Shown: piece after piece, positions 48,447-64,000 of the stretch
Layout of the letters: each line of letters starts with the position of its first letter
Position numbering within the stretch: the first letter of the stretch is position 1
Assembly: GCA_963845755.1 (NCBI GenBank)
Contig: CAWJTV010000025.1
Location: forward strand, 192,001-256,000
Length of the DNA stretch: 64,000 bases
From: an uncultured Planctomycetota bacterium
GTDB lineage: Bacteria; Planctomycetota; Planctomycetia; Isosphaerales; Isosphaeraceae
Direction: 5' to 3'
Translations under genes and position numbers: made by a program
Notes under the pieces: model-generated
The model's database searches: none
Seen by the model: only the letters and a program-made list of their open reading frames with translations
Told to the model about the DNA's origin: nothing

Positions 48447-51400
48447 ATGGAATCAGGGCGGGGCCATCTCATCGGATGGATCGGAATTGGCACGATCGCG
48501 ATGTCCGTCATGGCGCTTGGTCTGGGTGGACCTGCGGCCGAGCCTGGGGCGCCGCCTGAGGCAACGGCCGTTGTGCCGAAATCGCCCGTCCCACCGCCGG
48601 AGGCTTCCAAACAGATCACGGTGCCGAAGGGCTTCCACGTGACCCTCTGCGCCGCCGAGCCCGATGTGGTCCAGCCGATCGCCATGACGTTCGATCACCG
48701 GGGCCGGCTCTGGGTCGTCGAGAATTACTCGTATCCCATCTGGCTGGGCGGGCCGCACGGCAAGGACCGCATCCTCATCTTCGAGGACGTCGACGGCGAC
48801 GGCCGATTCGATCGGCGGACGGTATTCGCCGACGGCGGGACCAATTACACCGGCATCGAGCTGGGTTTCGGCGGGGTCTGGGTGTGCGCCACGCCCAACC
48901 TGATCTTCATCCCCGATCGCGACGGCGACGACCGCCCGGACGGCGCGCCGATCGTCAAGCTCGACGGCTGGGATATCAAGTCTCAGCATAACATGTTCAA
49001 TGCCCTGCGATGGGGACCGGATGGCTGGCTCTGGGGCTGTAACGGCATCCTGGGCAGCTCGATGGTCGGTAAGCCGGGGACGCCGTCCGAGAAGCGGACG
49101 CCGATGAATTGCGGCGTCTGGCGATATCACCCCACCCGCGAGGTCTTCGAGATCGTGGCAAACGGCACGACCAATCCCTGGGGACTCGACTTCGACGATT
49201 ACGGCGAGGCGTTCATTACCAACTGCGTCATCGCCCATCTCTTCCGAGTGATCCCCGGGCGCACTTTGAGCGCATGTACGGCAATGACTTCAACCCGTTC
49301 CTTTATGAATTGATGGCCTCTTGTGCCGATCACCTGCACTGGGCCGGCGGGCGCTGGCAGGACTCGCGCTCCGGTGAGCAGCATGCCGTGCTCGGCGGCG
49401 GGCACGCCCACGTGGGGGGCATGATCTACCTGGGCGACAACTGGCCCGAGATGTACCGCAACACGCTGTTCACCTGCAACATTCACGGACACCGCGTGAA
49501 CAACGATCGGCTCGACCGTAGCGATGAGGGATATCAAATCGTCGCGCGACACAATCCCGACTTCCTCTCGTCGGCCGATCCCTGGTTCCGCGGGTTGGAG
49601 CTGAAGTACGGGCCGGATGGCGGCGTGTATCTTACCGACTGGTCGGATATCGGAGAGTGCCACGAGACCGACTCCGACAACGCGCATCGCGAGAACGGGC
49701 GGATCTTCAAGATCACTTATGGCGATGTCAAGCCCATGACGGTCGACCTGGGCCGCCAGACCGACGAGGAGTTGGCGCGGCTCCAGCTCCATCCCAATGA
49801 GTGGTATGTCCGCATGGCGCGACGGTTGCTCCAGGAGCGCGCGGTCGCGGGCAAGGACATGGCCGCCGTGCATCGGGCGCTGCGCGAGATCCTGACGACC
49901 CATCCCGACGAGCGGCGCCAGCTTCGGGCGATCTGGGCGCTGAATGCCACGGGAGGGCTGGATGAGAAGGGCCGGCTGGCGCTGCTGGACAATCCCAGCG
50001 CTCAGGTCCGGGCGTGGGGTGTCCGATTGCTCGTAGACGATGGGGTACCTTCGACGGCGACAGCCGACCGGCTCGGCGAGATGGCGGGGGTTTCGACGTC
50101 GAACCACGGCCGGTCGGCCGAGCGGGGCGCGGTGGTGCGACTCGCGCTGGCCTCCGCGCTCCAGCGCGTCCCCCTCGCGGACCGATGGCCGATCGCCGAA
50201 GCACTGGCGAAGGATGGCGCGTACGCGACGTCGCGCGAACACACGCTCCTGCTCTGGTACGGCCTGGAGCCGCTGGTGTCTGGCGATGGCGCGCGGTCGG
50301 TCAAGCTGATCGAACGATGTCCGAGCCTGCTCCTTTGCCGGTTCGTTGCGCGGCGGCTAATCGACGCAGATGCCGAGGCCGGGCTGGCGGCCCTGATGCC
50401 GGCGCTGCGGGGCCGGCCGCAATCCTACCCGTCGTTCCACCGGGATGTCCTCGACGGCATCCTCGAAGCCTGTCAGGGCCGGAAACTGCGCCGGGATGCC
50501 GGCGGGCTGGCGCCTGCGTTCGCTTGGCTGACGGAGCGGGGCGACCCGGACGTCCGGGCGAAGGCCGCCGCGCTCGGGCTGCTGTTCGGCGATCCCAAGG
50601 CCGAGATCGGTCTTCGGGCGGTCGTCGAGGACCGCGCGGGATCGACGAGCGCCCGGCAATTCGCACTCCAGAATCTGGTCGATCGTCGAGTGGCCGAGCT
50701 GGTTCCGGTCCTCCTCCGGCTACTGGACGACCCGGCGCTCCGGGCGCCCGCGATCCGTGGCCTGGCCGCCTACAACGACCCGGCGACGGCGGAATCGATC
50801 CTCCGCCGATATCCCGCCCTCACGCCCGCCGAGCGCGACGACGCGATCGCCACGATGGCGTCGCGACCCGCCTGGGCGCTGGCTTTGCTGGAAGCCATCG
50901 GCAAGGGAACCGTTGCCCGCCGTGACCTGAATTCCACCGTCGCCCGGCAGATCCTGGCGTTCCGAACACCGAAGCTGACAACGTCCCTCGAACGGGCCTG
51001 GGGCACGCTCCGGCCAACTGCCGGGAACAAGGCCCCGTTGATCGCCAAGTACAAGACGATCCTGGCGTCTCCCGACCTGCCGGCCCCCGACCCGGATCGG
51101 GGCCGCGCCCTGTTCGGTCGGATCTGCGCCCAGTGTCACCGCCTGTTCGATCAGGGGGGCGATGTGGGGCCCGATCTGACCGGATCCGACCGCGCCAATC
51201 CCGACTATATCCTCGAGAACGTGCTGGACCCCAGCGCCAGCGTGGGGCGGGATTACACGCTCACCACGGTCGCGACCCACGACGGCCGGCTCGTTTCCGG
51301 GATCCTCCGCGAGCAAACACCCAACGCCCTCGTGATCCAGACCCCCTCGGAACGGCTCACCTTGCCCCGCGACGATGTCGAGGCGATCAAGGGCTCCACG

Positions 51401-51786: not shown

Positions 51787-53130
51787 ATGCATACAACTAT
51801 CGATCTACGCATCACGCTCGTCTTAGGTCTTACTCTGATGTCAGCCGTGCCCCCGGCCGGCGCGACGGCGGGCTTCGGCCAGGCCGATGACGCCGCGGGT
51901 GCGCGCGTCCTGACGGGCCACGAGGCCCTCGGCGACTGGACGACCGACGCTCCCGGTCTCCGCCGCCGGATCACGCTCGAAGACCTGGCCACGCCCTACG
52001 AGACACCCTCGGCCAACAATTTCCCCAGGCCCGCACGCCGTCCCGAGGGCGCAATGCCAATGGCGCCGAAGGGCTTTCAGGTCACCGAATTCGTCGGCGG
52101 CCTGAGCAATCCCCGGAAGATCGTGACCGCTCCCAACGGCGATATCTTCTTCGCCGAGAGCATGCCCGGCCGCATCAAGATGCTGCGCGACGCCGACGGA
52201 GATGGAAAGCCCGAGGTAGCCAGTGTCTATGCCAGCGGGCTCAGCCGTCCGTTCGGGATCGCGTTCTATCCGCTCGGACCGAAACCGGATTACGTGTATG
52301 TCGGCAATACCGACTCGGTCGTCCGCTTCCCTTACAAGGATGGCGATACCAAGGCCACGGGTCAGCCCGAGATGATCGTCAAGAATATCCCGAGCGGCCG
52401 CGAGCGCGTCGGCGGCGGCGGCCACTGGACCCGCGACCTGGAATTCTCGAAGGACGGCAAGATTCTCTTCGTGTCCGTCGGTTCCCGGTCGAATGTCAGC
52501 GACGACGCCAGTGAGCGGCGCCGAGCGGATATTCTGGCTTTCGATCCCGACGGCAAGAATGAACGGATCTACGCCTATGGCATTCGCAATGCGGTCGGCC
52601 TGGCGATCCACCCCGAGACCGGCCAGCTCTGGGCGTCCGTCAACGAACGCGACCTGCTGGGAGACCACCTGGTCCCCGACTACGTGACCCACGTCGAGGA
52701 GGGCGGCTTTTACGGCTGGCCCTGGTATTACCTGGGGGCACACCAGGATCCCCGTCACGAGGGGAAGCACCCCGAGCTGAAGGAGAAGGTGATCGTCCCG
52801 GACGTGCTGGTCCAGTCGCACTCCGCATCGCTGTGCATGACCTTCTATACCGGGACCTCGTTCCCCAAGGAGTATCACCTCGACGCGTTCGCCGCCGAGC
52901 ACGGTTCCTGGAACCGCGCCCGTCGCACGGGGTACAAGGTCATCCGCATCCCGATGAAGGACGGCAAGGCGACCGGCGAATACGAAGACTTCCTGGTCGG
53001 ATTCGTCACCAAGGAAGGGAATGTCTGGGGGCGACCCGTCGGTGTCACCGTGGCCAGGGACGGCGCCTTGCTGGTTACCGACGACGGCTCGAATATCATC
53101 TGGCGCGTCAGCGCCGTTCCGGCGAAGTAG
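51787..53130 (+). CDS. Sorbosone / PQQ-dependent sugar dehydrogenase family protein
   Basis: GHWTRD, VSVGSRSN, GIRNAVGL, VNERDLLGD, FYGWP, HGSWNR and GRPVGV. Confidence 0.92.
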   Translation: MHTTIDLRITLVLGLTLMSAVPPAGATAGFGQADDAAGARVLTGHEALGDWTTDAPGLRRRITLEDLATPYETPSANNFPRPARRPEGAMPMAPKGFQVTEFVGGLSNPRKIVTAPNGDIFFAESMPGRIKMLRDADGDGKPEVASVYASGLSRPFGIAFYPLGPKPDYVYVGNTDSVVRFPYKDGDTKATGQPEMIVKNIPSGRERVGGGGHWTRDLEFSKDGKILFVSVGSRSNVSDDASERRRADILAFDPDGKNERIYAYGIRNAVGLAIHPETGQLWASVNERDLLGDHLVPDYVTHVEEGGFYGWPWYYLGAHQDPRHEGKHPELKEKVIVPDVLVQSHSASLCMTFYTGTSFPKEYHLDAFAAEHGSWNRARRTGYKVIRIPMKDGKATGEYEDFLVGFVTKEGNVWGRPVGVTVARDGALLVTDDGSNIIWRVSAVPAK

Positions 53131-53149
53131 GTCGGGATCGCCCAGAAGC

Positions 53150-53178
53150 CCCGGGCGGCGGATTTGCCGCCGCCCGGG
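53150..53178. terminator. GC-rich hairpin between convergent genes
   Basis: CCCGGGCGGCGG-ATTTG-CCGCCGCCCGGG, 12-bp perfect stem with no clear U-tract. Confidence 0.55.
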
Positions 53179-53203
53179 ACGAGGCCGCTTCAACATCTCG
53201 GGA

Positions 53204-54862
53204 TCACAGCCCGCTAAGGTCGAGCGCGACGATGCGAACGCCGTGCTTCAGGCCCAGCTTCTTCACCACCTCTTCACTCGCCGGCACGCTGAAACTCCGA
53301 CGCGGAGGAATACTGATTCCCGAGAGCACGCGCGGAACCTCGTCCTTGCCGCTCTCGGTGCCCAGTGCCGCCACACCATTGAGTAGCAATGGCGAGGCAT
53401 TATCAATCCGCAACCGGTAGGTCAACTTTCCCTTCTCGCGAGGACCCTTGAGCAACTGCATCCGCACCAGACGGTTCAGCAGACCCTCCGCCAACGAATC
53501 GGCGAACTTGGCCGCCTCGAACTTGCCGTCCTCGCCCTTGATCGGGACCGTGAACTTGCCGAAGGGAATCCACTTCGCCCCGGCGCCATCGCTGCTGACG
53601 ACCTGGACCAGGGCCGCGTCTCCCTTGAGGCGCACCCGGAACGCCACCGACGGCCCGGCCGGCCGCGCCGGAATCCCGCGCTCCGCGTAGAGGCCCAGCA
53701 CGATCTTGCCTTGCAAAAGTTGGCTCGTCTCGGCCGCCAACTTCTCGCCGGCCGCGTCGGCCCCGTCCACCTGGAAGTGCACCCGGCCTGTCTCGCCGTC
53801 CGCCAGGGTGTCCAGATGCTCGACGAAATCGTGCGCCAGGGTCAACTCGTACCCGTTGGCCCAGTCCCGCGAGAGCTGCGCGATCGTCTCCCAGTCCAGG
53901 CCCGCCCCCAGTCGCCACAGGACCAGTTGCGCCACCCGCGTGGACGCCGTCTGGGCCGCCAGACGCTTCAGGGCCTTCTGCAGCCGGGGATCATCACTGA
54001 CCTCGCTGATATCGCCGATCTTGAACGACTCGCCTTGAGCGGGCAACTTGAGACCCTGTCGGGGATCGGGGTTGGTCAGGCTGATGAAGCGCGTGGGCAG
54101 ATTACGAGTCTGACCGGGCTTGAGATCGGCGAACGGCAGGCTCGACGGCGGCACCGACATCATGCCACCCATGCCGCCGCCCATCATGCCGCCGCCCATT
54201 CCGCCACCCATGCCGCCCATTCCGCCACCCATGCCACCACCCATTCCACCCATCCGGCCCATGCCGATCATCAGGCTTCGCCGGTCCCAGCTATCGAAGT
54301 CTCCGCAGAAATACATGATGATATTGGCGAGCATCATCATGCCCATCATCGGCGGCATCGTGCGGGCACCACCGCCCATCATCCCACCGCGCATCATGCC
54401 ACCGCCCATACCACCGCCCATGCCACCGCCCATACCGCCGCCCATGCCGCCGCCCATACCACCCATGCCACCCATCATGCCACCGCCCATACCACCGCCC
54501 ATGCCGCCCATCATTCCGCCCATCTGGCCGGTGGCGCTCTGGGCGACGATTCCCGGCGGCAGAATGACCCGCAGCGGCTTCTGGGTCCGATTCTTCACGG
54601 TGACGGTCACCCGACCGTCGCCGCTCCCCTCCGTTTTCACGGACACGAGCCCCTGGTGCATCGCATCGAGCAGATTGAACTCCGGCGGTTCCGGGCTAGC
54701 CTTATCCGGCGATAGGGACGCTGGTTTCGCCTGGGAGGTCGCGGGCGGGACGGCCGCCGCGGTCGGGTCGGCAGGACGGTCGTCGGAGGCCCGGACCGTC
54801 GTCGGGCCGCCCAAGAGGCCGGCCATCAGAAAGGCTGTCACAAGAGAAAAGAGTCGTCGCAT
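53204..54862 (-). CDS. Secreted Gly-Met-repeat protein, paralog 1
   Basis: RBS AAAGGAG, signal peptide MRRLFSLV...TTVRA, (GGM)n tracts flanking RTMPPMMGMMMLANIIMYFCGDFDSWDRRSLM, ends ALDLSGL. Confidence 0.9.
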   Translation of the reverse strand: MRRLFSLVTAFLMAGLLGGPTTVRASDDRPADPTAAAVPPATSQAKPASLSPDKASPEPPEFNLLDAMHQGLVSVKTEGSGDGRVTVTVKNRTQKPLRVILPPGIVAQSATGQMGGMMGGMGGGMGGGMMGGMGGMGGGMGGGMGGGMGGGMGGGMMRGGMMGGGARTMPPMMGMMMLANIIMYFCGDFDSWDRRSLMIGMGRMGGMGGGMGGGMGGMGGGMGGGMMGGGMGGMMSVPPSSLPFADLKPGQTRNLPTRFISLTNPDPRQGLKLPAQGESFKIGDISEVSDDPRLQKALKRLAAQTASTRVAQLVLWRLGAGLDWETIAQLSRDWANGYELTLAHDFVEHLDTLADGETGRVHFQVDGADAAGEKLAAETSQLLQGKIVLGLYAERGIPARPAGPSVAFRVRLKGDAALVQVVSSDGAGAKWIPFGKFTVPIKGEDGKFEAAKFADSLAEGLLNRLVRMQLLKGPREKGKLTYRLRIDNASPLLLNGVAALGTESGKDEVPRVLSGISIPPRRSFSVPASEEVVKKLGLKHGVRIVALDLSGL

Positions 54863-55333
54863 TGCACTTCTCCTTTCGGCGAGTTCTCGGCGCAGTGAAA
54901 AGATGAAATCACATGAAAATATCTCGACTGACTGTCGAAAGCCGTGACACGGAGCATTGCGAGGAGGGGCATCACGTGTGTGGGCGTACATTCGCCCCTC
55001 CGACGTGACCCTCCGATCCACGGGGATCCCTTGGTGGGACAGTAGGCGTCTGGCTCAGGTCCGTCGCCCGCCCAACCGATGACGAATTCGCTGAGCCAAG
55101 TCCCTCGCTCACCGTCCGGGTGAGGCAACGGAAGGATCAGAATCATGGCGACTGGCGCCCCCGGCAGATTCACCCGAACGCATACCGCCCCATGTCCGCT
55201 CAGAGAGTGGCGCAGTAAATCCGGTCGGAGTGCGATCCGAGGCAGCAACCTCACGCCGTGGCTGAGGCGGAAGCGATGGCGAGACCAGCGACGGTGAGAC
55301 CGCCTGGGCGAAGGAAGGGAAAAGGCGGCGGGA

Positions 55334-55675
55334 TCAACAGCGCAATGGGACTGTGGCCAGCCGTCGGCTCGACCTCGGCCCATTCGAAATCGAGGAGACT
55401 TCGTGACTGGGGCTGGCTACGGGGCCAAGATCCGACTCCTGAATGATACGAGGATTCGTCTCTTCAAGCACGGACTTCAGCCGGCGCCATGGGGAGTAGA
55501 TAGCCACCGAACAGGGACGTGGAACGGAAGAAGCGTACGATGGCTTCATGCAATCGCGGGGGACGCGAGTCGTATGGTAGTTGGCAGGACGCTTGACATG
55601 GCGAATGCCGGCCGTGGCGAAAGCGAGTGAGAATCCCACCACCAGCATGAATATTGTCGAACGTCGCCACGACAT
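55334..55675 (-). CDS. Small signal-peptide ORF ending PLRC, copy A
   Basis: MSWRRSTIFMLVVGFSLAFATA...SPWRRLKSVLEETNPRIIQESDLGP...RRLATVPLRC; conserved with copies B and C. Confidence 0.8.
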   Translation of the reverse strand: MSWRRSTIFMLVVGFSLAFATAGIRHVKRPANYHTTRVPRDCMKPSYASSVPRPCSVAIYSPWRRLKSVLEETNPRIIQESDLGPVASPSHEVSSISNGPRSSRRLATVPLRC

Positions 55676-55746
55676 CGACCCACTCCCAAACACCTAGTCG
55701 GCTTACGGAAAACGCCGGCAGGCTTTGTAGACCCTTCCGTCTTCAA

Positions 55747-55775
55747 AAAATACCGGACTCCCCACCGGTAGTCAA
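55747..55775 (-). promoter_or_regulatory. Sigma70-like promoter for small ORF A
   Basis: TTGACT-17 bp-TATTTT on the minus strand; the spacer carries the inverted repeat TACCGG...CCGGTA. Confidence 0.6.
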
Positions 55776-55909
55776 GTCGAATTCAACTCAATCTTAAATG
55801 GAGGCGCGTCTCTATGGCAGATTGGTCTTTGATTGGCGATGCCGAGCTGTCCAGCTACAGATTCCCGGCCGACTGACGGTCGCAACCGGGAATGTGCCGG
55901 ATCCGGAAA

Positions 55910-55940
55910 CGGCCCTGGGCGAGCGAGTCGCCCAGGGCCG
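55910..55940 (-). terminator. Hairpin downstream of paralog 2
   Basis: CGGCCCTGGGCGA-GCGAG-TCGCCCAGGGCCG, followed by TTT on the minus strand; homologous hairpins at 58692-58722 and 61374-61400. Confidence 0.65.
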
Positions 55941-55988
55941 ACGTCCTTGAGTCCACGGCCCTTGCGCTCGGGGCCGGCCGGGGATCGA

Positions 55989-57639
55989 TCACAGCCCACT
56001 GAGGTCGAGCGCGACGATGCGAACGCCGTGCTTCAGGCCCAGCTTCTTCACCACCTCTTCACTCGCCGGCACGCTGAAACTCCGACGCGGAGGAATACTG
56101 ATTCCCGAGAGCACGCGCGGAACCTCGTCTTTCGCACTCTCGGTGCCCAGTGCCGCCAACCCATTGAGCAGCAGCGGCGAGGCATTATCAATCCGCAACC
56201 GGTAGGTCAGCTTTCCCTTCTCGCGAGAACCCTTGAGCAACTGCATCCGCACCAGGCGGTTCAGCAGACCCTCCGCCAACGAATCGGCGAACTTGGCCGC
56301 CTCGAACTGGCCGCCCTCGCCCTTGACCGGGACCGTGAACTTGCCGAAGGGAATCCACTTCGCCCCGGCGCCATCGCTGCTGACGACCTGGACCAGGGCC
56401 GCGTCTCCCTTGAGGCGCACCCGGAACGCCACCGACGGCCCGGCCGGCCGCGCCGGAATCCCGCGCTCCGCGTAGAGGCCCAGCACGATCTTGCCTTGCA
56501 AGAGCTGGCTCGTCTCGGCCGCCAGCTTCTCGCCGGCCGCGTCGGTCCCGTCCACCTGGAAGTGCACCCGGCCCGTCTCGCCGTCGGCCAGGGTGTCCAG
56601 GTGCTCGACGAAATCGCTGCGCCAGGGTCAACTCGTACCCGTTGGCCCAGCTCTGCGACAACTTCGCGATCGTCTCCCAGTCCAGGCCCGCCGCGAGTCG
56701 CCACATGATCAGTTGCGCCACCCGCGTGGACGCCGTCTGGGCCGCCAGACGTTTCAGGGCCTTCTGCAGCCGGAGATCATCACTGACCTCGCTGATATCC
56801 CCGATCTTGAACAGCTCGCCTTGAGCGGGCAACCTGAGGCCCTGATTGGGATCGGGATTGGTCAGGCTGATGAAGCGTGTGGGCAGATTACGAGTCTGAC
56901 CGGGCTTGAGGTCGGCGAACGGCAGGCTCGACGGCGGCACTGACATCATGCCACCCATGCCGCCGCCCATCATGCCGCCGCCCATTCCGCCACCCATTCC
57001 GCCGCCCATACCGCCGCCCATACCGCCACCCATTCCACCCATCCGGCCCATGCCGATCATCAGGCTTCGCCGGTCCCAGCTATCGAAGTCTCCGCAGAAA
57101 TACATGACGATATTGGCGAGCATCATCATGCCCATCATCGGCGGCATCGTGCGGGCGCCGCCGCCCATACCGCCGCCCATACCACCACCCATACCGCCCC
57201 TCATACCGCCGCCCATACCACCGCCCATACCGCCGCCCATACCGCCGCCCATACCACCGCCCATACCGCCACCACCCATCCCGCCCATCATGCCACCCAT
57301 CTGACCGGTGGCACTCTGAGCGATGATTCCCGGCGGTAAAACGACGCGGAGGATCTTGCGAGTACGATTGGTCACGGAGACGGTCACGCGACCATCGCCG
57401 CTCCCCTCGGCTTTCACGGACACGAGCCCCCTATGCATCGCGTCGGGCAAGTTGAACTCGGGCGGGCCCTCCTCGGCCTTATCTTGTGAGACGGATGCTG
57501 GTTTCGCCGCAGAGGTCGCAGGTTGGGCCGCTGTCGTGGTTCTTTCAGCACGACTGTCGTCGTCGGCGCGGGCGGTTGCCAGGCAGCCGACGAAGCCGGC
57601 TACCAGGAACGCTGCGGAAAAGGGAAAACATTGTCGCAT
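55989..57639 (-). CDS. Secreted Gly-Met-repeat protein, paralog 2; frameshift near 56618
   Basis: MRQCFPFSAAFLVAG...ATARA with the same core; C-terminus in ORF 55989-56567. Confidence 0.88.
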
Positions 57640-58107
57640 GGCACTGGTCCTTTCGGCGAGTTTTTCGGGGTAGGAAAGATCAGCAAAGAACATGAAGACA
57701 TTTTGACTGATGATGGCCCAGGCCATGATCCGGACTGTAGGCGGAGAGTCGGCGCGAGCACGACCCCACCCGTCCAGCCTGGCCCACCCCTTCCGTAGGG
57801 GCCCTGGTCTTGGAAGGCAGCCGTCTGGTTGCGGCCCCTCGCCCGCTCCGCCTCCGGCGCGCCCGCTCGAGGCAAGCCTCAGAGAGAGCCAGTCCGGGAG
57901 ACGAAATGGAAGAGTTGCGCCACGGCGACTTGGCGCCCCCAGCCGATTCATCTGGGTGGCGGCAAGGGACATCTCAGGCCAGCAGTCGCAAGCATCCGGG
58001 CGGAGACTGGCCCCAGTCGGCAAGCTCACGCTCGGGCTGTTACAGGATCCGTGGTGGGACCGGCAACAGTGATGCGGCGCAGGCGAACGCGGGGGCAAGC
58101 GGCGGGC

Positions 58108-58452
58108 TCAACAGCGCAAAGGCAATGTGGCGAGCCGGCGGCGCGGGCTCGACCCGGTCGAAACGAAGGGGATGAAATGACTCGGGCTGGTTATGGCGGC
58201 GAGGTCCGACGCCTCGAAGATTCGAGGACTCGTCTGTTCCAACACCGACTTGAGCCGGTTCCGCCATTGGGAGTGTTGGGAGAGCGACGAGGGTTGCGGA
58301 ACGCACTGGGAAGGGACTTGCTCTTCGCGGTCGAACGCGCTGCGACGAACATCGAGGTTGGTACGAGCCTCGGCGACTGAAAAGGCGGTCGCGGTGGAAA
58401 CGGGCAGGAGCCCCGCGACCAGTACGAGCATTGCCAAGCGTCGCAGCCACAT
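58108..58452 (-). CDS. Small signal-peptide ORF ending PLRC, copy B
   Basis: MWLRRLAMLVLVAGLLPVSTATA...SQWRNRLKSVLEQTSPRIFEASDL...RRLATLPLRC. Confidence 0.8.
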   Translation of the reverse strand: MWLRRLAMLVLVAGLLPVSTATAFSVAEARTNLDVRRSAFDREEQVPSQCVPQPSSLSQHSQWRNRLKSVLEQTSPRIFEASDLAAITSPSHFIPFVSTGSSPRRRLATLPLRC

Positions 58453-58527
58453 CAGCCTGCTCCCGCAGAAGTTGGTCAGACTCCACGTCGCCTTCGCAGG
58501 CTTCGTAGACCCCGCCCATGGTGTGCA

Positions 58528-58556
58528 ACCATACCGGGCTCCTCGGGGAAAGTCAA
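58528..58556 (-). promoter_or_regulatory. Sigma70-like promoter for small ORF B
   Basis: TTGACT-17 bp-TATGGT at the position homologous to 55747-55775. Confidence 0.6.
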
Positions 58557-58787
58557 GTCGGATTGACCATAATATTCGATTAAAATACTTTTCTCTGTTA
58601 GATTGGTCTTCGATCGGGAATGCCGGGCTGTCCACCGGGAGATTCCCGGCCGAGGGCCGGTTGCGGGACGGGCTTGATCGGAATCATGGAAGCACCCCGA
58701 GCGAGCGGTTCGCCCAGGGCGCATGTCCTTGAATGAACGGTCGCCGCGCCACTCGCCCGACGGGCTCGGAGAGCGGCCAGGCTGGGA

Positions 58788-60450
58788 TCACAACCCGCTG
58801 AGGTCGAGCGCGACGATGCGAACGCCGTGCTTCAGGCCCAGCTTCTTCACCACCTCTTCACTCGCCGGCACGCTGAAGCTCCGACGCGGAGGAATACTGA
58901 TTCCCGAGAGCACGCGCGGAACCTCATCCTTGCCGCTCTCGGTGCCCAGTGCCGCCACACCATTGAGCAGCAATGGCGAGGCGTTCTCGATCCGCAACCG
59001 GTAGGTCAACTTTCCCTTCTCGCGAGGACCCTTGAGCAACTGCATCCGCACCAGGCGGTTCAACAGCCCTTCCGCCAACGAATCGGCGAACTTGGCCGCC
59101 TCGAACTTGCCATTCTCGCTCTTGACGGAGACCGTGAACTTGCCGAAGGGAATCCACTTCGCCCCCGCGCCGTCGCTGCTGACGACCTGGACCAGGGCCG
59201 CGTCTCCCTTGAGGCGCACCCGGAACGCCACCGACGGCCCGGCCGGCCGCGCCGGAATCCCGCGCTCCGCGTAGAGGCCCAGCACGATCTTGCCTTGCAA
59301 GAGCTGGCTCGTCTCGGCCGCCAGCTTCTCGCCGGCCGCGTCGGTCCCGTCCACCTGGAAGTGCACCCGGCCCGTCTCGCCGTCGGCCAGGGTGTCCAGG
59401 TGCTCGACGAAATCGCGCGCCAGGGTCAACTCGTACCCGTTGGCCCAGTCCCGCGAGAGCTGCGCGATCGTCTCCCAGTCCAGGCCCGCCCCCAGCCGCC
59501 ACAGGACCAGTTGCGCCACCCGCGTGGACGCCGTCTGGGCCGCCAGGCGCTTCAGGGCCTTCTGCAGCCGGGGATCATCACTGACCTCGCTGATATCGCC
59601 GATCTTGAACGACTCGCCTTGAGCGGGCAACTTGAGACCCTGTCGGGGATCGGGGTTGGTCAGGCTGATGAAGCGCGTGGGCAGATTACGGGTCTGGCCG
59701 GGCTTGAGATCGGCGAACGGCAGGCTCGACGGCGGCACCGACATCATGCCCCCCATGCCGCCGCCCATCATGCCGCCGCCCATTCCGCCACCCATGCCAC
59801 CCATTCCGCCACCCATGCCACCGCCCATGCCACCCATCCGGCCCATGCCGATCATCAGGCTTCGCCGGTCCCAGCTATCGAAGTCTCCGCAGAAATACAT
59901 GACGATATTGGCGAGCATCATCATGCCCATCATCGGCGGCATCGTGCGGGCGCCACCGCCCATACCACCCATCATGCCGCCGCCCATACCGCCACCCATA
60001 CCACCCATACCACCGCCCATGCCACCGCCCATGCCACCGCCCATGCCACCCATACCACCCATCATGCCACCGCCCATACCACCGCCCATACCGCCCATCA
60101 TTCCGCCCATCTGGCCGGTGGCGCTCTGGGCGACGATTCCCGGCGGCAGAACGACCCGCAGCGGCTTCTGGGTCCGATTCTTCACGGTGACGGTCACCCG
60201 ACCGTCGCCGCTCCCCTCCGTTTTCACGGACACGAGCCCCTGGTGCATCGCATCGAGCAGATTGAACTCCGGCGGTTCCGGGCTAGCCTTATCCGGCGAT
60301 AGAGACGCTGGTTTCGCCTGCGGAGGTCGCGGGCGGGACGGCCGCCGCGGTCGGGTCGGCAGGACGGTCGTCGGAGGCCCGGACCGTCGTCAGGCCGCCC
60401 AGGAATCCGGCGGCCAGGAACACTGCGGAAAGAGCGAAGAACGGTCGCAT
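58788..60450 (-). CDS. Secreted Gly-Met-repeat protein, paralog 3; frameshift near 60322
   Basis: RBS AAGGAG, ATG at 60450 (MRPFFALSAVFLAAG...TTVRASDDRPADP); mature part nearly identical to paralog 1. Confidence 0.88.
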
Positions 60451-60931
60451 TGCACGTCTCCTTCAGGAGAGTTTCGGTGTGAAAACGATCAACAAATTAC
60501 ATGAAAACATACCGAATCATGATAGTCCGGGCCGCGGCCCGTGCAATTCGCCGGCGGATCCCATCACGAGCACAAGCACGAGTGCGACTCCGCCCGCCTT
60601 GACGTGGCTTGCCGATCCACGCAAGCCCTTCGTTCGGGAAGCGGCCGCCCGCTTGAGGCCCCCGTCCGATCCGCCGATGAAGCGTCACCGAAGGTCAGGC
60701 CCGCGAGTGCACCGGTTCGGATGACCGAACGGCAGACTTCGAAATTCAGGGGCTGGTGTCACCAGCCGGTTCACCCGGACGCATCCGGGGCGTGGCGTGT
60801 CAGCGGTCACAACGGATCCGGATGGACCGCAGTCTGGGGCGGGAAGCTCGTTCTGTACGCTGATGCCGAACGGTTGTCGGACCAGCGACGGCGAGGCCGC
60901 CCGGGGCGAAGGAAGGGAAAGTGGGGTGGGA

Positions 60932-61273
60932 TCAACAGCGCAGCGGGACTCTGGCGAGCCGTCGGTTCAGGCTCGACCCGCTCGGAACGAAGGGATTCCC
61001 ATGATGCTGGCTGGGTACGGGGCCAAGATCGGATTCCTCGATGATTCGAGGACTCGTCTCTTCGAGTACAGACTTGAGCCGGCGCCATGGGGAATAGATG
61101 GAGACCGAGGAGGGACGCGGTGCGGAGAGAACACTGGCGTGTTTCTCCGCTCCGACGGCGATGCAGGTGGAATCAGGCTTGGCACGGTCGTTGACCTGTC
61201 GATCGCCGGGCGTGGAGGAAGCGAGCCAGAAGCCCGCGACCATCATGAGCATTGCCAAGCATCGCGACCACAT
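60932..61273 (-). CDS. Small signal-peptide ORF ending PLRC, copy C
   Basis: MWSRCLAMLMMVAGFWLASS...SPWRRLKSVLEETSPRIIEESDLGP...RRLARVPLRC. Confidence 0.8.
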   Translation of the reverse strand: MWSRCLAMLMMVAGFWLASSTPGDRQVNDRAKPDSTCIAVGAEKHASVLSAPRPSSVSIYSPWRRLKSVLEETSPRIIEESDLGPVPSQHHGNPFVPSGSSLNRRLARVPLRC

Positions 61274-61373
61274 CGATGCAACCCTTAAAAACTTGGTCGG
61301 GACGGAAATCGCCTTTGCAGGCTTTGCAAATCCCTTCCCCAAAGATGTGAAAAAAGTCCGGGATCCTGGAACG

Positions 61374-61400
61374 GCCCTGGGCGAGCGAGTCGCCCAGGGC
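61374..61400 (-). terminator. Hairpin downstream of paralog 4
   Basis: GCCCTGGGCGA-GCGAG-TCGCCCAGGGC, identical to the core of 55910-55940. Confidence 0.6.
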
Positions 61401-61477
61401 ACACGTCTTTTGTATCCGTCGGTCCCGTGTTCAGCCCGCGGGCCATCGGCCCAAGGGGTGAGACCGACCGGCCGGGA

Positions 61478-63142
61478 TCACAGTCCGCTGAGGTCCAGCG
61501 CCATCACGCGGATGCCTTGCTTCAGACCGAGCGCCTTGACGGCCTCCTCGGAGGCGGGAAGCGTCATGTGCTTCCGAGGCGGGATGCTGATCCCCGAGAG
61601 CAGCTTGGGAGCCTCTCCGGGCTTGTCCACCGTACCCATCACGGCCAATCCGTTGAGGTTCAGCGGCGAGACATTGTCGATCCGGATTCCGTAAGTCAGC
61701 TTGCCCTTCTCGCGGGGCCCCTTGATCAACTGGGCCCGGACGAGGCGGTTGATGATGCCCTCAGCCAGCGCTTCGGCGAACCGTGCGCTCTCGAACTTTC
61801 CGCGATCCTTGGTGACCGGCACCGAGAACTTGCCGAAGGGGAGCCAGTTCCGGGCCCAACCGTCGCTGCTGACGACCTGGACGACCGCGTCGCTGTCGCG
61901 GAACCGCACCTGGCAGGCCACCGCCGGTCCCTCCGGTCGCGACGGAACCCCGATGACCGCTTGAAGCCCGAGCACCGTCTTCCCCTTCATCAGTTCGGAG
62001 AGTTCGGCCGCCCGCGACTCGCTCGACGCGTCCGTCCCGGTGATCTGGAATAAGATCCGCCCGGTTTCGCCTTCCGGCAACGCGCCCAATCGGTCCACGA
62101 AGTCCCGGGCCAGGGTCAGTTCGTTTTGGTTCGCCCACTTCTGGGAGAGTTGGGCGATGGAATCCCAGTCCAACCCGCCGGCCAGCCGCCACATGACGAG
62201 TTGCGCCACCGACGCGGGGACCATCCGGCCGCTGAGTCGCTTGAGAGCTTTCTGCACCTGCGGATCGTTGTTCACTTGCGCGATGTCTCCCACGATCCGG
62301 AGGATTTCTCCCTTCTCGGGCAGGGCGACTCCATTCTCGGGATCCGGATTGGTGAGACTGACCACGCTGGTCGGCAAGTGCCGGGTCTGCTTGGGTTTCA
62401 GATCGGCGGATGGGAGACTCGACGGCGGAACCGACATCATCCCGCCCATACCACCACCCATGCCGCCCATACCACCACCCATGCCGCCGCCCATGCCGCC
62501 GCCCATGCCGCCCATGCCGCCACCCATGCCGCCGCCACCCATGCCCATCATCAGGCTTCGCCGGTCCCAGCTATCGAAATCTCCGCAGAAGTACATGACG
62601 ATATTGGCGAGCATCATCATGCCCATCATCGGCGGCATCGTGCGGGCACCACCGCCCATACCGCCACCCATACCGCCGCCCATGCCACCGCCCATACCGC
62701 CGCCCATGCCACCGCCCATACCGCCGCCCATGCCACCGCCCATACCGCCGCCCATGCCACCGCCCATGCCACCCATGCCACCGCCCATACCGCCCATCTG
62801 GCCCGTGGCACCCTGGGCGACAATTCCCGGAGGAAGGATCACGCGGAGCGCGTGGTTGGTGCGGTTGGTCACGGAGATCGTGATCCGACCGTCGCCGATT
62901 CCTTCCGCCTGGGCGGAAACCAATTTCTGACTCATGGCATCGAGCAGGCTGTATTCGGGAACATCTTGCGTCGTCCCGGGTTCAGTCTTGGAGGTGGCCG
63001 TGGTCTTGGGTGCCTTGGCACTCGGCTTACCTTTGACCCGACTGCTGATCTTGACCTCCTGGGCAGAGACCCAGGCCGCCGGCAAGATGGCCATCAGGCC
63101 GCCGGCTACCAACGCGATAAAACCATGTAACGACTGACGCAT
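61478..63142 (-). CDS. Secreted Gly-Met-repeat protein, paralog 4 (most divergent)
   Basis: MRQSLHGFIALVAGG...WVSA signal, same Met/Cys core, ends ALDLSGL. Confidence 0.9.
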   Translation of the reverse strand: MRQSLHGFIALVAGGLMAILPAAWVSAQEVKISSRVKGKPSAKAPKTTATSKTEPGTTQDVPEYSLLDAMSQKLVSAQAEGIGDGRITISVTNRTNHALRVILPPGIVAQGATGQMGGMGGGMGGMGGGMGGGMGGGMGGGMGGGMGGGMGGGMGGGMGGGMGGGARTMPPMMGMMMLANIVMYFCGDFDSWDRRSLMMGMGGGGMGGGMGGMGGGMGGGMGGGMGGMGGGMGGMMSVPPSSLPSADLKPKQTRHLPTSVVSLTNPDPENGVALPEKGEILRIVGDIAQVNNDPQVQKALKRLSGRMVPASVAQLVMWRLAGGLDWDSIAQLSQKWANQNELTLARDFVDRLGALPEGETGRILFQITGTDASSESRAAELSELMKGKTVLGLQAVIGVPSRPEGPAVACQVRFRDSDAVVQVVSSDGWARNWLPFGKFSVPVTKDRGKFESARFAEALAEGIINRLVRAQLIKGPREKGKLTYGIRIDNVSPLNLNGLAVMGTVDKPGEAPKLLSGISIPPRKHMTLPASEEAVKALGLKQGIRVMALDLSGL

Positions 63143-63877
63143 GGATTCTGCCTTTCTACTCACTGCATTGGCCGCAACGACATGGGGTGAAAAGTGGCCG
63201 GTCAATCCGCCTGATGGCGGCATCCGAGAGAATCAATCGAGGGGTCTGAGAGCCAACATCCGCGGTGGCGACTGGGTCCCGGGTCATCACTCGACCCGAA
63301 TGGGCGACCCATCGCGATCCGGCTATTCAACGCAACCTGGTCCATCGGTATGGAACGGAGCCGTGTCGCGATGTCGAGCATTCTGAAGCTTAGAGACGAT
63401 CGATCCCGGTCGAATATTCGCTGACAAGGATCGGTCGGCACCAGATTTCACCAGACGCCCAGCGAGTCGGATCCGAAGGCGGGAAAGGCGTCGGTGCGGG
63501 GTCCGGCAAGGTTCCTGCGTAAAGATTGTGCCCACAGGGACTTCGGCCGTCGCTGCGGCCAGGACGACGGTGGGAGATAACGCCCTGAGGCCGTGACCGG
63601 CCTTGATGCCGGGCGACCCCGATTGTCTCGCTAGCTGGCTCCTTGATCGCGGTTCGGAGACCGTTCAGGCCGGGGGCTCGCAGCGAAGACCGTTCAATGG
63701 ACGGTGGGGAGGCGATGAAAGCGTGAACGACCGTCCCATGATGAATGAGCGGTTGGGGACGTCCCGTCTCGATCGCCAGGGGACCCGCTTGACGGGGCAG
63801 GTGAATCTGCTATAAGATGGGAATATTAAAAGACTTAGTGTTTCGTTTCTCCTGATTTTCGCGAGGCCGGTGTGGCA

Positions 63878-64000
63878 ATGGAACTGCTGTCAGAGATTTG
63901 GGATAAGACGACCGACGCATTCACGTCGCTCTCGGAAGGGGTCTCGCACGGACTGATCCGACTGTTCGGCAGCTCGAACGAGCGGAAGATCCGGCAGATG
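63878..64000 (+). CDS. secA: Preprotein translocase SecA, N-terminus (runs off the window)
   Basis: MELLSEIWDKTTDAFTSLSEGVSHGLIRLFGSSNERKIRQM; LFGSxNER is the SecA N-terminal motif, here with a planctomycete-type extension. Only 41 codons are visible. Confidence 0.7.
   Translation, partial: MELLSEIWDKTTDAFTSLSEGVSHGLIRLFGSSNERKIRQM

Follow-up and report, generated by a model that had tools for sequence, protein, structure and literature searches.

Small open reading frames (ORFs) that end in Pro-Leu-Arg-Cys (PLRC) directly before the stop codon form a real, unnamed and lineage-restricted leader family in the Isosphaeraceae, a family of planctomycetes. Their mechanism we infer from known leader systems, and we lean towards reading them as arrest-type leader peptides whose stall at the stop codon would decide whether Rho terminates transcription before envelope genes. 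Three of them lie in a 64,000-nucleotide (nt) stretch from an uncultured Isosphaeraceae bacterium (contig CAWJTV010000025.1, positions 192,001 to 256,000), here called the window. Leaders A (55334..55675, 113 amino acids), B (58108..58452, 114 amino acids) and C (60932..61273, 113 amino acids, with a hydrophobic N-terminus) are all on the minus strand, start with ATG and finish PLRC-TGA with the codons CGC TGT TGA. A first, sequence-only reading of the window had reported these ORFs together with a shared core motif, an RRLAxxPLRC ending and C/U tracts after the stop, and every one of these features is present.

A PLRC-stop end shared by unrelated leaders

Leaders A, B and C are members of an unnamed group of Isosphaeraceae proteins about 115 residues long (family 1). 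With a profile built from nine copies, matches were obtained in 23 of 121 Isosphaeraceae genomes and for 164 representatives in a 50%-identity protein library; beyond the family, 251 genomes of the class gave no credible match and four weak partial ones (E 2e-5 to 8e-3). Cys is the last residue in 141 of the 162 retrieved proteins, LRC the ending in 134 and PLRC in 105, and several of the 21 without a terminal Cys are truncated or shifted-frame readings of the same terminal DNA. The PLRC end had been called invariant, which is true of A, B and C; across the 141 Cys-ending proteins Arg (99%) and Leu (96%) are nearly fixed, whereas Pro is present in 79% and the 'RRLA' stretch is not conserved.

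Sequence comparison indicates that family-1 ORFs are under purifying selection at the protein level, with dN/dS of 0.48 overall, 0.31 in the core and a partly circular 0.06 at PLRC (13 disjoint homologue pairs, 50-97% identity). The leader is almost certainly a real translated gene. Across 85 proteins the N-terminus carries a basic residue at positions 4-5 and a hydrophobic stretch at 8-17, and the AlphaFold model consists of one helix (residues 2-19) with no other structure (pTM 0.24). We thus predict a hydrophobic, localisation-signal-like helix at about residues 2-19. Pfam gave no family at E 0.01 among 118 members, and NCBIfam likewise gave none for the leaders.

The same terminus recurs on proteins that family 1 does not include. 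When the window's genome was read in six frames, a stop followed PLRC in 21 of 447 cases (4.7%), compared with 1.5-2.9% for five permutations. Eight of these 21 close an ORF whose hydrophobic N-terminal segment lies suitably far upstream, namely the three in the window and five elsewhere, and the latter precede HlyD/AcrB-type RND genes or another exported protein gene. The terminal variants PRRC and PLLC also occur in this genome. A profile of the pump-associated leaders (family 2) matched 53 of 121 Isosphaeraceae genomes and 233 proteins, and found no member in 300 further genomes from the phylum; among the 120 matches listed, all end in Cys and 117 in PLRC. Families 1 and 2 share only 8 alignable columns.

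After de-duplication there were 88 locus matches, 79 of which end Cys-stop (46 of 53 in family 1, 33 of 35 in family 2); the nine excluded are frameshift pieces and weak matches. Downstream of the 46 family-1 loci lies a gene for a Gly/Met-rich exported protein in 43, another exported protein in 2 and a contig end in 1, while 32 of the 33 family-2 loci have an RND component (HlyD/AcrB-like) within 1.5 kb. These pumps score better against multidrug models than against CusA/CzcA models.

To avoid profile bias, we also searched DNA for the PLRC-stop motif alone. A first, looser pattern was uninformative. With the final pattern, 13 of 27 matches in five Isosphaeraceae genomes were ORFs of 110-145 amino acids with a hydrophobic N-terminus, whereas ten genomes from other families yielded 1 such ORF among 31 matches. 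Of the 13, seven stand ahead of RND/TolC-type genes and three ahead of large proteins without a Pfam match, and three have no clear target. Taken together, the leaders group into 13 sequence clusters (n=176).

Several further arrangements were seen among these loci. A third leader subfamily (L159, L160, L173; L179, L180, L184) stands ahead of proteins of ~590-660 amino acids without a Pfam or NCBIfam match. At L001 (8989-10886), two serial PLRC leaders with a transposase-like helix-turn-helix ORF between them precede an AcrB-type gene. Leader-associated HlyD-type genes (L003; also, for example, L089, L098 and L103) encode proteins whose first residues resemble the start of AcrB-type permeases (MNPIxFAxRRP...), which suggests fusion or duplication of a permease start.

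Spacing, codon choice and base composition at the stop codon

Counted without gaps from the end, family 1 retains R-49 (91%), K-47 (95%), V-45, L-44 (89%), D-32 (89%), G-30 (91%) and P-25 (83%). Between -24 and -5 no residue rises above 42%, and P-L-R-C then closes the protein. The core Lys stands at exactly -47 in 125 of the 131 sequences in which the motif was found, and D-L-G begins at -32 without exception in 103 matches. In family 2, all 94 matches place the motif at -33. By contrast, in family 1 the distance from the N-terminal Arg to the core Lys is variable, at 60-71 (81 of 98 counted). In the window, the core (residues -52 to -25) occupies 55409..55492 in A, 58183..58266 in B and 61007..61090 in C, where a basic W-R-x-R-x-K-x-V-L is followed by an acidic E-E...E-E-x-D-L-G-P. 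An unfolded protein with a length-fixed, sequence-free linker of exit-tunnel size fits what a tethered nascent chain would need.

Acidic residues are concentrated at -55 to -31, where 59% and 66% of them fall within 26% of the length. Windows of 12 residues with at least four Asp or Glu, mostly centred at -35 to -54, occur in 116 of 133, 30 of 33 and 5 of 11 leaders in three sets.

Codon choice at the end is also restricted. The final codon is the rare TGT at 69 of 79 loci and in 37 of 40 copies under 50% identity; for internal Cys, TGT is the codon in 19% of cases across the genome and at 20 of 88 positions within family 1. The penultimate Arg codon is CGY in 35 of 38. TGA is the stop in 35 of 40 copies, compared with 71% of control genes, and TAA or TAG closes 7 of the 79 loci. 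The TGT bias points to a constraint at the level of messenger RNA or ribosome; a protein acting in trans would not need it.

This bears on the view that the products are stable, exported accessory mini-proteins that act in trans on the neighbour's product, with PLRC-COOH as a binding, degradation or modification tag. The signal-like N-terminus, the conserved core, purifying selection and the co-duplication of leader and large gene would all suit such a role, as would the HlyD-type leader, which is conserved along its entire C-terminal half. A function in trans leaves unexplained the TGT codon, the C-rich patch described below and a linker that is free of indels yet free of conserved sequence; moreover, no fold is predicted, and an identical end stands ahead of unrelated partners. 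We therefore regard accessory proteins as unlikely and think that the leaders probably act in cis on the ribosome.

A cis-acting leader could also sense a thiol-related or chemical signal at its last codon, such as Cys-tRNA shortage, oxidation, a metal or a tunnel drug, with the rare UGU slowing the final step. The invariant terminal Cys and the strong TGT and CGY bias favour this, as do the RND pumps and Met-rich protein among the targets, and CruR, a signal-peptide leader, is described in part of PMC9426467 as sensing its ligand independently of the signal peptide. Yet a single Cys codon would make a poor starvation sensor, CxxC occurs in just 3 of 85 family-1 proteins, the pumps score as multidrug rather than CusA/CzcA and the fixed-distance core is left without a role. 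We rate such sensing as improbable.

The Cys-UGA ending might alternatively be recoded, with selenocysteine (Sec) at UGA forming a Cys-Sec redox pair. The window's genome has a tRNA-Sec, and SelA was found in 5 of 5 family-1 genomes tested, the window's own included. On the other hand, three 99%-complete genomes have TGT-TGA leaders without a full SelA match (none in G078 and G117, a weak partial one in G021), PLRCC ends occur in 0 of 162 proteins and the frame past UGA is unconserved, running from 7 to over 128 codons. The non-UGA stops and the leaders in genomes without a full SelA match led us to reject the selenoprotein reading, to which we give scarcely any credence.

Around the stop, from about -90 to +30, lies a low-structure patch richer in C than in G. 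Its C>G bubble exceeds the 90th percentile of this genome's long control genes at 24 of 46 and 22 of 32 loci. In the window, the C/U-rich tract 3' of stop C (60903..60931, minus strand), a candidate Rho loading site, reaches the 96.8th percentile, the C-rich tract after stop B (58080..58107) the 90.9th and the C/U-rich tract after stop A (55306..55333) the 97.7th. In family 2, G is scarce at synonymous sites of the final 30 codons, and the genome encodes Rho.

Each tract opens a spacer on the minus strand: 471 nt for A (54863..55333), 468 nt for B (57640..58107) and a non-coding 481 nt for C (60451..60931). An Rfam scan of window positions 53000-64000, spacer C included, gave no match, and no intrinsic terminator with a U tract follows the stop in the window spacers. 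Promoters appear to precede the leaders. The pattern TTGAC-N17-TAnnnT, derived from the same upstream set that was scanned, lies 90-110 nt before the leader ATG at 29 of 43 loci, and occurs 0 times in 43 spacers (15,689 nt; shuffles 1.2). Predicted sigma70-type promoters serve leader A (55747..55775, minus strand; TTGACT-17-TATTTT, 100 nt before the ATG) and leader B (58528..58556, minus strand; TTGACT-17-TATGGT, 104 nt before the ATG). Neither the region upstream of leader C nor its spacer has a sigma70-like promoter, and C may be transcribed by read-through from the gene above.

The leader could instead unmask the downstream ribosome-binding site in the style of SecM or MifM, or the region could be a DNA or RNA motif in which the ORF is incidental. 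The pyrimidine tract is indeed complementary in composition to a purine-rich Shine-Dalgarno (SD) sequence, and the nucleotide bias CGY-TGT-TGA would suit a motif. However, family-1 duplexes of tract and SD are no stronger for cognate (-18.3 kcal/mol) than for non-cognate pairs (-18.4 kcal/mol; 40 loci), and SD accessibility is unaltered when the ribosome footprint is blocked. In family 2, anti-SD pairing gave a weak signal (permutation p 0.02 on 20 loci, mean z just -0.28). We found no conserved hairpin or pairing partner for the stop region and no conserved spacer motif beyond kin similarity, and the ORF itself is under protein-level selection. Both ideas seem very unlikely.

A proposed stop-codon arrest and its precedents

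In the mechanism that we favour, stop-codon arrest, the hydrophobic N-terminal helix would take the nascent chain to the Sec translocon. With Cys as the last residue, the core (-52 to -30) would have just left the exit tunnel and reached the mouth of the translocon, and a pull on it there would release the stall. While the stall held, the ribosome would cover the C-rich patch at the stop and keep Rho off, and RNA polymerase would run on into the Gly/Met-protein or RND-pump gene; upon release, Rho would terminate within the spacer. That the ribosome arrests at the stop codon, shields the rut-like patch and so allows read-through into the target is proposed by analogy with TnaC, CruR and the NSP-, NAP- and DGMK-stop peptides discussed below, and we are evenly divided on whether control runs through Rho attenuation.

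Which signal would be sensed is a more tentative matter. Nascent chains are reported to reach SecYEG at 40-50 residues from the peptidyl transferase centre (PTC; bioRxiv 10.1101/2021.12.23.474019), and membrane potential is reported to pull acidic stretches strongly enough to release SecM arrest, with other residues likewise giving some release (review PMC6028853); we draw on parts of both sources. Together with the concentration of acidic residues, this reach and this pulling of charge make export force or membrane energisation our leading guess, though a minority one, with a thiol or chemical signal at the last Cys as the main alternative. Translocon force or membrane potential is a possible rather than a likely signal, which in many subfamilies would be read by the acidic cluster at -55 to -31. 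A fuller version, which we hold to be doubtful, would make PLRC-UGA one new termination-arrest motif for an Isosphaeraceae-wide regulon of force-sensing leaders. Their acidic cluster, 30-55 residues from the PTC, would be pulled through SecYEG by membrane potential; loss of energisation or export would then keep the stall, block Rho and turn on proton-driven RND pumps and envelope proteins. Were this true, the PLRC-UGA leader would be a natural voltage-sensing arrest peptide.

Comparison with known leaders, for which we draw on parts of each source, places the PLRC leaders near several of them. CruR of Bordetella (Bp2923, DUF2946/PF11162; PMC9426467) is likewise a predicted-exported, poorly structured upstream ORF (uORF) of similar size, with fixed spacing between an upstream and a C-terminal motif, a long intergenic region, a C>G bubble over the uORF end and envelope targets. 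The PLRC leaders differ from it in lacking RAPP, CxxC and PF11162, in a motif that abuts the stop codon, in longer spacers (220-530 nt versus 162) and in their targets, which are RND/TolC-type genes and unknown exported proteins rather than TonB-dependent and copper genes. The link to CruR and copper that the sequence-only reading had suggested is not supported: CxxC is scarce in family 2 (8 of 120 among the matches listed) as well as in family 1, DUF2946 gave no match, and there is no RAPP-like motif.

The NSP-, NAP- and DGMK-stop peptides (PMC10987492) also combine a localisation signal with conserved residues directly before the stop. They differ in motif and lineage and lie directly upstream of secA or secDF, whereas the PLRC leaders do not directly precede secA, secDF or yidC on their own strand; secA adjoins in 5 of 24 mapped regions but is transcribed divergently from the opposite strand, and the leaders are followed by Gly/Met or RND genes instead. 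TnaC (bioRxiv 10.1101/2021.03.31.437805) follows the same proposed logic, in that a stall at a UGA stop covers an adjoining downstream rut site, so that Rho cannot terminate transcription ahead of the following gene, although TnaC is a cytoplasmic peptide of 24 amino acids that ends in Pro and senses tryptophan. As with SecM, ApdA, ApdP, RQH and other RAPP/RGPP uORFs (PMC10987492, PMC12992588), one short C-terminal motif sits on small exported proteins that are otherwise unrelated and that lead a variety of operons. The RAPP type arrests elongation, whereas the PLRC leaders are predicted to arrest termination, have a long spacer and give no support for SD masking; RAPP-, RGPP-, RAGP- or LPPP-like C-terminal motifs occur in 0 of 141 family-1 proteins and in 0 of 120 family-2 proteins among the matches listed.

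These comparisons uphold part of the sequence-only proposal of a new class of arrest-type leader. The promoter-first position, the same terminus before unrelated envelope genes, the fixed core-to-end spacing, the lack of a predicted fold, the C>G patch and the Rho gene speak for a leader; the likeness to RAPP arrest motifs and the status of a new class do not stand. The PLRC leaders are better described as carrying a stop-codon-type motif, a CruR/TnaC-like design with a new motif. PLRC itself does not appear in the main text of either PMC10987492 or the LudP preprint and has one internal occurrence in the PMC10987492 supplements. We found no description of the family in the literature, with sparse coverage of subscription papers.

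Several observations weigh against stop-codon arrest. PLRC differs from the terminal motifs of the named stop-codon arrest peptides and resembles no characterised arrest motif, and none of the known arrest mechanisms can explain the preference for TGT. The profile (hidden Markov model) and motif searches include PLRC, which makes the terminal counts and the PLRC dN/dS partly circular, and the genomes compared are kin. Six of the 13 sequence clusters have no acidic cluster. The C-rich tract 3' of the stop is short, at about 30 nt (C/G 1.94, then 1.17), and family 1 shows no G depletion at synonymous sites in the last 30 codons (p 0.67). In addition, where four Gly/Met genes form an array (the window, L028, L064-L067, L070), the first of them lacks a leader. 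The sigma70-like pattern is also absent from three leaderless Gly/Met genes that we checked, so another promoter type is usable and might also sit in the spacers.

If confirmed, the PLRC leaders would add a new arrest motif with Cys at the stop codon. Control by arrest peptides would then reach beyond the Sec/YidC machinery to efflux pumps and envelope proteins of unknown function, in a phylum where gene regulation has received little attention. The leaders would also explain a recurring class of 'hypothetical proteins' and mark the downstream genes as one likely regulon. With hundreds of natural variants and an exact ruler (core at -47/-32), the sensing step would be directly testable.

The Gly/Met-rich arrays and their neighbours

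The window's gene order is L1 - C - L2 - B - L3 - A - L4, all on the minus strand, where L denotes Gly/Met-rich proteins of ~550 amino acids with a signal-like N-terminus. L1 (61478..63142, 554 amino acids), an exported protein and the first of the array, is without a PLRC leader and without a Pfam or NCBIfam family. L2 (58788..60450), L3 (55989..57639) and L4 (53204..54862) are the presumed targets of leaders C, B and A. The three leaders share 42-54% amino-acid identity and their spacers are mutually alignable, pointing to tandem duplication of a unit of promoter, leader, spacer and L gene; A, B and C are thus not independent copies. Single-base frameshifts interrupt L2 (near 60320) and L3 (near 56615), as well as an upstream dehydrogenase-like gene (49100-49300) and secA (L006 5142-5635), and these are probably indel errors of assembly.

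The Gly/Met-rich proteins form an unnamed family of at least 318 members in which a short conserved M-Y-F-C-G-D segment lies between two long GGMGG repeats, and tandem arrays of 2-5 copies are common. Database labels of the homologues are Isosphaeraceae or Isosphaerales, and Pfam and NCBIfam gave no match. In the L1 model, residues 360-468 weakly resemble a TolB-N/FlgT/PelC-like domain (Z 7-7.7; the best match, at Z 7.7, has an rmsd of 2.9 over 96 residues), which names no function, and beta-sandwich regions also appear. Such a model is consistent with an envelope role for the L proteins.

The surroundings of the arrays recur as well. The secA gene is divergent from the Gly/Met array in five mapped regions (window 63872-64000 on the plus strand, which is L006; L067, L068, L070 and L081), and the gene immediately beside secA is the PLRC leader in two of them, L068 and L081. 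In many regions the opposite end of the array faces a convergent gene of the glucose/sorbosone dehydrogenase family. A fifth Gly/Met gene, leaderless (G000:C11:308022-309700), is divergent from what by eye appears to be a gene for an extracytoplasmic function (ECF) sigma factor.

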